A stretch of DNA of 1,237 nucleotides from Naegleria gruberi (GCA_000004985.1 GG739486.1); one strand, 5' to 3'. Positions 3 through 886 are shown, counted from the stretch's first letter. A program made the numbers and translations. Notes: generated from the letters alone by a model not told the origin.

Positions 3-536
3 TCATCAAGCAGGAAACGTGGTGGAAAATTTGGTCAATCAAGACAACAAGGAGGTAATATGAAACAAGGAGGAATGAAACAAGGAAGAATGCAACAAAA
101 TGGTCAATTCAATGAACAACAACAAGGAATGGGACAATCAAATATGCAAACAAATTCTCAACAAGGAAAGCAACAATCCAGAATGCTTAAGGGAAGATTT
201 GGTAAACAACAAGGAGGAATGCAAATGAATAATAGACAACACATGCAACCACAATTAGGTAATCAATCCAACACTGAATCATCTCAACAAAACAATAGAA
301 TGCAAAAAGCAGGTGGAATGAAAAAATCAAGACAACAAGGTAACATGCAAAGAGGAATGAATAGAAGATCAAAGCACCAACAAAATGGTCAACTCAATAA
401 TCAACAACAACAAGAAACTAATCAACAACCAACTAGTAGCTCAACAACAACTGATCAAACTATTCAAACACTTGTTGATTTGAGAAATATTCTTGATTCA
501 ATTAAATCAACTCGTAATCGTAAATTAACAATGTAA
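3..536 (+). CDS. 5'-partial Gln/Asn/Met/Gly-rich low-complexity protein, C-terminal part, with degenerate (K/R)GG(K/R)FG...QQGG(N)M repeats and a non-repetitive 28-aa C-terminal tail
   Basis: The frame starting at base 3 is open to the window start with no in-frame stop: SSSRKRGGKFGQSRQQGGN precedes the first in-window ATG at 60. Bases 1-59 are about 40% GC and continue the same peptide repeat (GGKFGQSRQQGG versus KGRFGKQQGG at 189-222). They are therefore coding rather than the extremely AT-rich 5' UTR expected in this kind of genome. The ORF track gives 60..536 (158 aa); the stop is TAA at 534-536, followed directly by AATAAA. Codon usage (CAA, AAT, GGT/GGA, AGA) is consistent and there is no internal TAA/TAG. 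The product cannot be named from memory; the RGG/FG-like motifs suggest an RNA-binding-type low-complexity region, but that is a guess. Confidence 0.75.
   Translation, partial: SSSRKRGGKFGQSRQQGGNMKQGGMKQGRMQQNGQFNEQQQGMGQSNMQTNSQQGKQQSRMLKGRFGKQQGGMQMNNRQHMQPQLGNQSNTESSQQNNRMQKAGGMKKSRQQGNMQRGMNRRSKHQQNGQLNNQQQQETNQQPTSSSTTTDQTIQTLVDLRNILDSIKSTRNRKLTM
21..347 (+). repeat. Three dispersed degenerate copies of a ~35-42-nt coding unit, at 21-62, 189-222 and 309-347. It encodes GGKFGQSRQQGGNM, KGRFGKQQGGM and AGGMKKSRQQGNM.
   Basis: There is an exact 14-nt match tcaagacaacaagg at 39-52 and at 327-340. The elements ggaaaatttggtcaa (25-38) and ggaagatttggtaaa (193-207) are near-identical. The peptide-level motif is (K/R)GG(K/R)FG ... 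(S)RQQGG(N)M. Confidence 0.7.
63..92 (+). repeat. Tandem 15-nt coding repeat x2 (aaacaaggaggaatg / aaacaaggaagaatg), encoding KQGGM-KQGRM
   Basis: A direct comparison of 63-77 with 78-92 shows 14 of 15 identical bases. Confidence 0.8.
402..413 (+). repeat. (CAA)4 run encoding Gln4 within the Q-rich region
   Basis: The sequence at 402-413 is caacaacaacaa. It is one of many CAA-rich stretches and is short. Confidence 0.6.
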
Positions 537-542
537 AATAAA
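537..542 (+). promoter_or_regulatory. Canonical AATAAA polyadenylation hexamer immediately 3' of the + gene stop
   Basis: The sequence at 534-542 is taaAATAAA, with the stop TAA at 534-536 and AATAAA at 537-542. Eukaryotic genes with very short AT-rich 3' UTRs commonly carry AATAAA close to the stop. Other AATAAA copies on the + strand at 814-819 and 870-875 are probably chance matches in AT-rich sequence. Confidence 0.5.
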
Positions 543-575
543 CATTTAAACAATTTTTGTGAGAATTAAGTTATT

Positions 576-719
576 TTAATTAAAAGAAGAATCGATCTTA
601 AAAAATTCCCAAACTGTCATATCTTTAGTATTCATAACTAGTACATTTTCCTTATTTTTTAAATTATCAACTATTTTTGAATATAATTTACTAAAATGTA
701 TAGAAATACGTCCACCCAT
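576..719 (-). CDS. Candidate small ORF (47 aa): MGGRISIHFSKLYSKIVDNLKNKENVLVMNTKDMTVWEFFKIDSSFN*. It could be a small protein gene or the first exon of a gene continuing beyond a weak splice donor.
   Basis: Hand translation of the - strand gives ATG as the rc of 717-719, an in-frame upstream stop as the rc of 759-761, and a TAA stop as the rc of 576-578. The ORF track did not list it, presumably because it falls below the length cut-off. GC content is about 22% here versus about 14% in the flanking 720-886 spacer and about 15% in 537-575. The peptide is not low-complexity and has mixed hydrophobic and charged residues. No homolog is recognised from memory. A 47-codon ORF could also arise by chance in AT-rich DNA, so confidence is low. 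Confidence 0.25.
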   Translation of the reverse strand: MGGRISIHFSKLYSKIVDNLKNKENVLVMNTKDMTVWEFFKIDSSFN

Positions 720-886
720 TGAAAATCCAATTTTAGTAATCTTTGTTCTTTTTTCAAATTATATTTTTTTTAAAGATTGTAAATTTTTATTTATATAGGC
801 CTATTTATTAAATAATAAAATGAAAATGAATTGATTATTTGAAAATATCATTTAAAACAATTAACAATGAATAAAAGTATTTTTAT
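720..886. promoter_or_regulatory. Extremely AT-rich (~14% GC) spacer. It is the likely 3' UTR and processing region of the 887..1237 gene, and would be the putative promoter of the 576..719 ORF if that ORF is real.
   Basis: A composition count gives 24 G+C in about 167 nt. The spacer contains a T8 run (764-771), a palindromic TATATA (792-797), and an isolated GC-containing 10-bp perfect palindrome ATAGGCCTAT (795-804). Dictyostelid promoters and UTRs are characteristically 85-90% AT with homopolymer runs. Assigning a promoter role here is inference only. Confidence 0.2.

Follow-up and report, generated by a model that had tools for sequence, protein, structure and literature searches.

A glutamine- and methionine-rich, strongly basic protein tail, predicted to be disordered and built from a 15-nt repeat, at the 3' end of a putative gene

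The window analyzed here, a stretch of DNA of 1,237 nucleotides, contains the 3' part of a putative gene whose product ends in a long tail rich in glutamine, glycine and methionine (Table 1). The sequence of this tail was born by slippage-type expansion of a 15-nt unit encoding KQGGM and by in-frame duplication of a module of ∼37 residues. By composition and structure prediction, ∼147 residues of the tail are of low complexity, strongly basic and intrinsically disordered, and a helix of ∼25–29 residues is predicted at its very end. Our best mechanistic guess, in which we place middling confidence, is that this polycationic tail binds nucleic acids non-specifically or promotes condensates, with the helix as its docking element.

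Table 1. Coordinates of the features discussed in the text (positions counted from the first base of the window; residues counted from the first codon of the plus-strand frame).
Feature	Position	Strand	Description	Basis
3' part of protein-coding gene (putative)	3..536	+	177 codons and TAA (534-536); 5' end beyond window edge	
Low-complexity, polycationic region, predicted to be disordered	3..443	+	residues 1-147; Q/G/N/S/R/M/K	composition, AlphaFold2, charge-hydropathy
Duplicated module A	15..125	+	residues 5-41, KRGGKFGQSRQQGGNMKQGGMKQGRMQQNGQFNEQQQ	local alignment and DNA seeds 37-52, 93-125
Tandem array, 15-nt unit	46..98	+	AACAAGGAGGAATGA in TRF register; AAACAAGGAGGAATG (K-Q-G-G-M) in codon register	TRF
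Diverged copies of 15-nt unit	117-131, 207-221, 306-320, 345-359	+		mismatch-tolerant pattern scan
Duplicated module A'	303..410	+	residues 101-136, QKAGGMKKSRQQGNMQRGMNRRSKHQQNGQLNNQQQ; 285-288 nt offset from A	
Predicted C-terminal alpha-helix	444..530	+	residues 148-176, TTTDQTIQTLVDLRNILDSIKSTRNRKLT	AlphaFold2
AATAAA, candidate poly(A) signal	537..542	+	directly 3' of stop	read from sequence
AT-rich spacer between two convergent genes (putative)	537..886	.	17% GC	GC profile
Convergent partial ORF	1237 to 887	-	116 C-terminal residues; N/S/T-rich, acidic, pI 4.05	

The plus-strand frame that begins at base 3 is free of stops for 177 codons, and the remaining forward frames of bases 1–536 contain 8 and 21 stops. 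Given how A-rich this part of the window is (48% A), 177 open codons would arise with a probability of ∼1.9e-6; among 3000 shuffles of bases 1–536 none reached this length, the longest open run being 142. GC content drops from 34% in 1–536 to 17% in 537–886, with the step falling exactly at the stop codon. Base composition by codon position is specific to this frame, which also shows biased codon choice. GC at third positions is 17% (83% A/T), all 41 glutamines are encoded by CAA, asparagine is mostly AAT, and arginine is encoded by AGA, CGT and AGG (11, 3 and 1 codons, respectively). The start of module A precedes the ATG at base 60, and therefore the coding region runs past the edge of the window. 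This bears out an earlier note on this DNA, which had placed the repeat upstream of that ATG: the duplicated module begins at residue 5, in a frame that is open there.

The window is best read as a pair of convergent nuclear genes from a eukaryote whose DNA is very AT-rich; the frame at bases 3–536 is genuinely coding and forms the 3' end of one of them. Its codon usage, like the base composition, fits a dictyostelid-like genome, and other AT-rich eukaryotes would also be possible sources. Two further assignments were considered and rejected. Under a ciliate code, in which TAA specifies Gln, the read-through sequence does not match and GC content collapses at the stop; for a giant-virus origin, the viral contig scan returned no viral locus at all.

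The AATAAA that follows the plus-strand stop is weak evidence for a gene end, because this hexamer is common by chance in such AT-rich DNA. TAA and AATAAA occur together at the ends of both convergent frames, with the hexamer directly after the stop at 534–542 on the plus strand (TAAAATAAA) and overlapping it at 882–889 on the minus strand (TAAATAAA). These twin ends fit eukaryotic poly(A) signals, a motif that is chance-frequent in AT-rich DNA. The minus-strand ORF contains PPLP and DDDFPVEY elements and has SADSFFD as its C-terminus before the TAA; the indexed protein search gave no homologue for it, and Pfam no meaningful match. In the spacer between the two frames, neither Rfam nor tRNA searches detected a structured RNA or tRNA. 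The spacer also contains an imperfect palindrome (783–816), with arms that are 75% complementary and with AGGCCT at its center; this hexamer is the only G+C-rich island within the part of the spacer that has a GC content of 12–13%.

On the minus strand of the spacer, a 60-codon stop-free segment extends over 576–758 (FEKRTKITKIGFSMGGRISIHFSKLYSKIVDNLKNKENVLVMNTKDMTVWEFFKIDSSFN, with its stop at 576–578). By eye, it resembles the nucleophile elbow of an alpha/beta hydrolase (GFSMGG) together with the strands and helix around it, and most of its profile matches, all of them sub-threshold, are to this fold. The Pfam profile Abhydrolase_1 matched the segment at profile positions 69–97 with E=0.056; its score of 13.5 bits compares with a cut-off of 25.8. 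Among NCBIfam profiles, MenH (E=0.013) and arylesterase (E=0.039) both scored far below their cut-offs, and the unrelated ORC1-type profile gave E=0.019. No other hydrolase-like piece was found in any minus-strand frame, nor a downstream segment with Asp or His motifs, and searches of PDB and plasmid sequences gave no useful match. Thus the segment has a G-x-S-x-G, but its score lies below the gathering cut-off and the catalytic Asp and His are absent, which leaves it outside the alpha/beta hydrolases as the family is defined. Its GC content is 19–23%, compared with 12–13% further along the spacer. The segment may be the relic of a gene, may serve as a small exon, or may be a product of chance.

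The repeat structure of the tail is evident at both the DNA and the protein level. TRF assigned the tandem array a period of 15, with 3.3 copies and 86% matches. When up to 3 mismatches were allowed, the KQGGM-encoding unit had 6 matches where 0.05 would be expected, a number that none of 200 shuffles attained. All six of these copies are in frame, each with an ATG methionine codon at its end, and additional methionines lie within the duplicated module in the contexts GNM and RGM. Local alignment of module A with module A' scored 85, versus 49 ± 6.6 for shuffles (z ∼5.4; none of 2000 reached 85). At the DNA level, bases 37–52 are 100% identical to 325–340, and bases 93–125 are 91% identical to 378–410. 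The offsets of these blocks, 288 and 285 nt (∼96 codons), are multiples of 3, and therefore the frame is kept between A and A'. The SRQQGG(N)M motifs pointed out previously are part of this internal duplication, occurring as SRQQGGNM at residues 13–20 and as SRQQGNM at 109–115. The few differences within the long duplicate blocks are non-synonymous. Given this and the 91–100% identity of the blocks, the sequence looks evolutionarily young and may be unconstrained.

The repeats also account for the methionines. Downstream of the in-window ATG, 14 of 158 residues are methionine (8.9%). For residues 1–137 (13 of 137), the binomial probability of such an excess is 2.5e-6, 1.2e-5 or 4.4e-5, with a background frequency of 1.9%, 2.2% or 2.5%, respectively. 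The Met/Gln-rich composition claimed in the earlier note is thus real, and the methionine excess is significant. The tail is rich in methionine because a short ATG-containing unit was amplified and then diverged; with so simple a mutational origin, the excess is not to be read as evidence of selection. The neighboring N/S/T-rich ORF, likewise of low complexity, has 1 methionine in 116 residues, so methionine richness is a local feature and not one that low-complexity sequence shows throughout the genome. Regular spacing of the methionines, also proposed, did not hold up: the coefficient of variation of the gaps is 0.58 versus 0.84 for random placement (p=0.07).

Glutamine is the top residue of the 177-residue peptide (41 of 177, 23%), followed by glycine (12.4%), asparagine (10.7%), serine (9.6%), arginine (8.4%), methionine (7.9%) and lysine (7.3%). 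The peptide has a pI of 12.0, with 28 K+R against 6 D+E. Over residues 1–137 the net charge is +21, with K, R or E at 25 positions (18%), and the first 36 residues contain no acidic residue. Hydrophobic residues in the low-complexity region (residues 1–147) comprise 13 Met, 3 Phe, 3 Leu and 1 Ala, with no Ile, Val, Tyr or Trp. The region has a GRAVY of -1.97 and falls clearly on the disordered side of the charge-hydropathy plot (<H> 0.28, versus 0.46 at the boundary). AlphaFold2, run on the single sequence, gave pLDDT values of ∼42–56 for these residues and almost no secondary structure; the mean pLDDT of the whole fragment was 55.

The end of the tail differs in character. In the last 40 residues, Q/N content falls to 17.5%, compared with 38.7% before, and AlphaFold2 places a helix at residues 148–176, a prediction that rests on a single sequence without an alignment. 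Mean pLDDT in 10-residue blocks was 89 and 90 over residues 151–170, which also lie on the folded side of the charge-hydropathy plot. The helical segment TIQTLVDLRNILDSIK falls within the non-repetitive C-terminal end. At 100 degrees its hydrophobic moment is no better than that of shuffles (p = 0.26–0.47); a signal emerges only at 110 degrees (p ∼0.02). Amphipathicity of the helix is weak, and the helix is not clearly amphipathic. Hence, of the ordered, amphipathic-looking C-terminus described in the earlier note, the loss of Q/N bias and the predicted helix stand, but the amphipathicity does not. A nuclear export signal in this part of the protein was considered and set aside: the class-3 pattern LVDLRNILDSI is present, yet shuffling the tail yields a match to one or another NES class in 37% of cases.

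No relative of the tail was found. A word-indexed search of 5.8 billion proteins returned nothing for the plus-strand fragment, for the minus-strand fragment or for the 40-residue tail alone. The last of these is a homology search with the C-terminal 40 residues, as had been suggested in the earlier note. An exhaustive phmmer search of 1.84 billion protein representatives had 0 matches at E ≤ 0.001, and PDB sequences gave none at E ≤ 10. Pfam matches to the two partial ORFs were sub-threshold and of chance quality (IL2, E=0.02; SCIMP, E=0.75). When contigs of metagenomes, viruses and prokaryotic genomes were scanned with back-translated patterns, no locus was confirmed, the degenerate DNA pattern for TLVDLRNILDSIK had 0 matches in metagenome contigs, and exact-product look-ups found no record of the window's proteins. 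As a positive control, phmmer was run at the real library size. The fragment itself was recovered at 1e-93, a copy with 60% of positions randomized at 9e-22, and a copy keeping only the last 42 residues at 9e-13, with 0 of 20 shuffled copies found. Because the control recovers diverged copies, the negative homology results are meaningful. They show that the searched collections contain no relative down to roughly 40% identity; the source genome itself appears to be missing from these collections or unannotated in them.

In the mechanism that we favor, the tail would act as a polycationic tether that binds RNA, DNA or other polyanions non-specifically, and would promote multivalent, RNA-dependent association of the condensate type (coacervation). 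Methionine and arginine would be the only plausible 'stickers', with glutamine, glycine, asparagine and serine as 'spacers'. The terminal helix would provide the one specific docking or oligomerization element, and the domain that defines the protein's job would lie upstream of the window. The case for tether and coacervation is drawn from the net charge of ∼+21, from the small number of acidic or aromatic residues, and from methionine and arginine being the sole candidate stickers. This class of mechanism has precedents in the literature on Met-rich, aromatic-poor low-complexity domains (PMC8394241) and on those that combine M with G (PMC11132505), both taken up below. The high positive charge makes homotypic association unlikely unless a polyanion is present. 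Against this explanation count the young-looking duplicates, the lack of a formal RGG/RG motif and of any homologue, and the fact that such regions are extremely common in Dictyostelium-type proteomes.

The tail does resemble RGG/RG boxes in being basic, glycine-rich and predicted to be disordered, and in having RGGKFG and KGRFG elements. Yet it has one RGG (residue 6) and two RG, at residues 6 and 117, which are 111 residues apart, and lysine is about as common as arginine. The RGG/RG motif, said to have been defined by Thandapani et al. in 2013, reportedly consists of di- or tri-RGG or RG with spacers of 0–4 residues. A regular-expression scan of the 177 visible residues detected no such doublet or triplet of either RGG or RG, so the proposed likeness to an RGG box fails on spacing in this part of the protein. 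FG dipeptides occur twice (residues 10 and 66), and not as the many close copies that mark nucleoporin-type FG repeats. The description of the tail as RGG/FG-type repeats with recurring (K/R)GG(K/R)FG was therefore too generous: that motif occurs once, as RGGKFG, with KGRFG as a single variant.

The main rival, which is possible although we would not call it probable, is that the tail is a neutral by-product, a harmless and generic low-complexity appendage that grew by slippage and duplication and that an AT-rich genome can tolerate where proteostasis is strong. Its repeat origin is shown directly, the duplicated blocks are similar enough to be recent, their few differences alter amino acids, and the searched collections contain no homologue. 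Moreover, predicted prion-like Q/N-rich regions occur in ∼20–25% of D. discoideum proteins (PMC8409284, PMC11537047, PMC13093961), which makes the class ordinary in such genomes, and many of these regions may be neutral. The tail shares with them AT-rich coding, exclusive use of CAA for glutamine, a Q+N content of 39%, predicted disorder, birth from repeats, and a density of Q/N that passes the 30-in-80 rule considered below. It departs from them in that it is not a homopolymer, is unusually basic and rich in glycine and methionine, and has no tyrosine. This coherent character, with its net charge of +21, its acid-free first 36 residues and methionine as sole abundant hydrophobic residue, argues against mere tolerance, as does the distinct non-repetitive helix at the very end. 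The frame-preserving indels between the duplicates, in turn, fit a region that is kept translatable.

The prominence of methionine brings to mind Met-rich, aromatic-poor low-complexity domains, which drive phase separation in Pbp1, TDP-43 and Pab1; in Pbp1, methionine oxidation dissolves the condensates (PMC8394241). Low-complexity domains that combine M with G are, furthermore, a recognized class in eukaryotes (PMC11132505). The tail might accordingly be imagined as a redox sensor of the Pbp1/ataxin-2, TDP-43 or Pab1 type, in which methionines self-associate and the assembly is dissolved by methionine sulfoxide formation. We consider this unlikely. With 13 methionines in 137 residues and almost no aromatics, the tail does carry the compositional hallmark described for Pbp1, methionine being its dominant hydrophobic residue (PMC8394241), and to that extent the Met-rich likeness noted earlier is apt. 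The formal definition of a Met-rich prion-like domain (MR-PrLD) asks for at least 5 Met, a Met bias of p < 1e-5 by fLPS and a PLAAC probability > 0.9 over the same stretch, and also considers the clustering of Met within the whole protein (PMC9312190). Residues 1–137 exceed the methionine count, and they are borderline for the bias, at 2.5e-6 to 4.4e-5 depending on background, when a binomial is used in place of fLPS. Against redox sensing, the tail is far more cationic than Pbp1 or the Met-rich parts of TDP-43 and Pab1, and its charge opposes homotypic association without a polyanion; its sequence is not similar to that of Pbp1, ataxin-2 or anything else in the searched protein collections; and its methionine content is explained by the copying of an ATG-containing unit. 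For the ataxin-2/Pbp1 family in particular, which is marked by Lsm and LsmAD domains and a PAM2 motif, the visible 177 C-terminal residues had no Pfam, PDB or library match, and N-terminal domains, if any, would fall upstream of the window. The likeness to Pbp1 is reasonable in the sense of 'works like', but nothing supports placing the protein in the ataxin-2 family. The earlier note was right to offer Pbp1 and RGG boxes as analogy and not as homology, since no homology to anything was found.

A classical prion-like or amyloid-forming Q/N domain seems very improbable. The tail satisfies the Q/N-rich rule, by which a run of 80 residues must contain 30 or more Q/N (as quoted in PMC8409284): its densest 80-residue window has 34, 71 of the 98 windows reach 30, and the region is predicted to be disordered. 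Prion predictors (PrionScan, PLAAC logic), however, weight charged residues negatively (PMC8409284), and with 18% charged residues, a net charge of +21 and no tyrosine the tail lacks a yeast-prion-like composition. In addition, Dictyostelium-type cells are reported to suppress the aggregation of Q/N domains (PMC4964863, PMC11132505). The label prion-like, as given in the earlier note, is accurate for Q/N density and predicted disorder, but not in the stricter sense.

The array does bear comparison with the repeats of a prion protein. It consists of short Q-G-G-X units (K-Q-G-G-M, in 3.3 tandem and several diverged copies) set in a Q/N-rich region predicted to be disordered, and these units resemble the QGGY-type oligopeptide repeat of Sup35, PQGGYQQYN. 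Unlike Sup35, the tail has methionine in place of tyrosine and interspersed lysine and arginine, and it is C-terminal, not N-terminal; there is no homology between the two.

That the frame is no gene at all, being open by chance or belonging to a fragment of a dead pseudogene, is scarcely credible: a product with no homologue and no record in the searched collections, visible only as a fragment, would fit such a view, but the 177 open codons (P ∼2e-6, with no shuffle that long), the sharp GC step exactly at the stop, the frame-specific codon-position composition with its biased codon choice, and the repeat offsets that preserve frame all oppose it.

As it stands, the tail matters little, because few features are as common in Dictyostelium-like proteomes as repeat-derived disordered tails rich in Q/N. 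Only one trait sets it apart, namely that methionine is nearly the sole hydrophobic residue in a strongly cationic context. It is a long shot that the protein belongs to a lineage-specific family in which an aromatic-free, polycationic module with Met/Arg 'stickers' mediates redox-tunable RNA coacervation while the non-repetitive terminal helix anchors it to a partner. If true, the module would be a cationic counterpart of the Met-rich domain of Pbp1 that evolved independently in an amoebozoan-like lineage. If the tail turned out to be conserved and to respond to RNA or to redox state, phase-separation research would have a moderate interest in it, since the small set of Met-rich low-complexity sensors (Pbp1, TDP-43 and Pab1) would then extend to a new charge regime and a new lineage.
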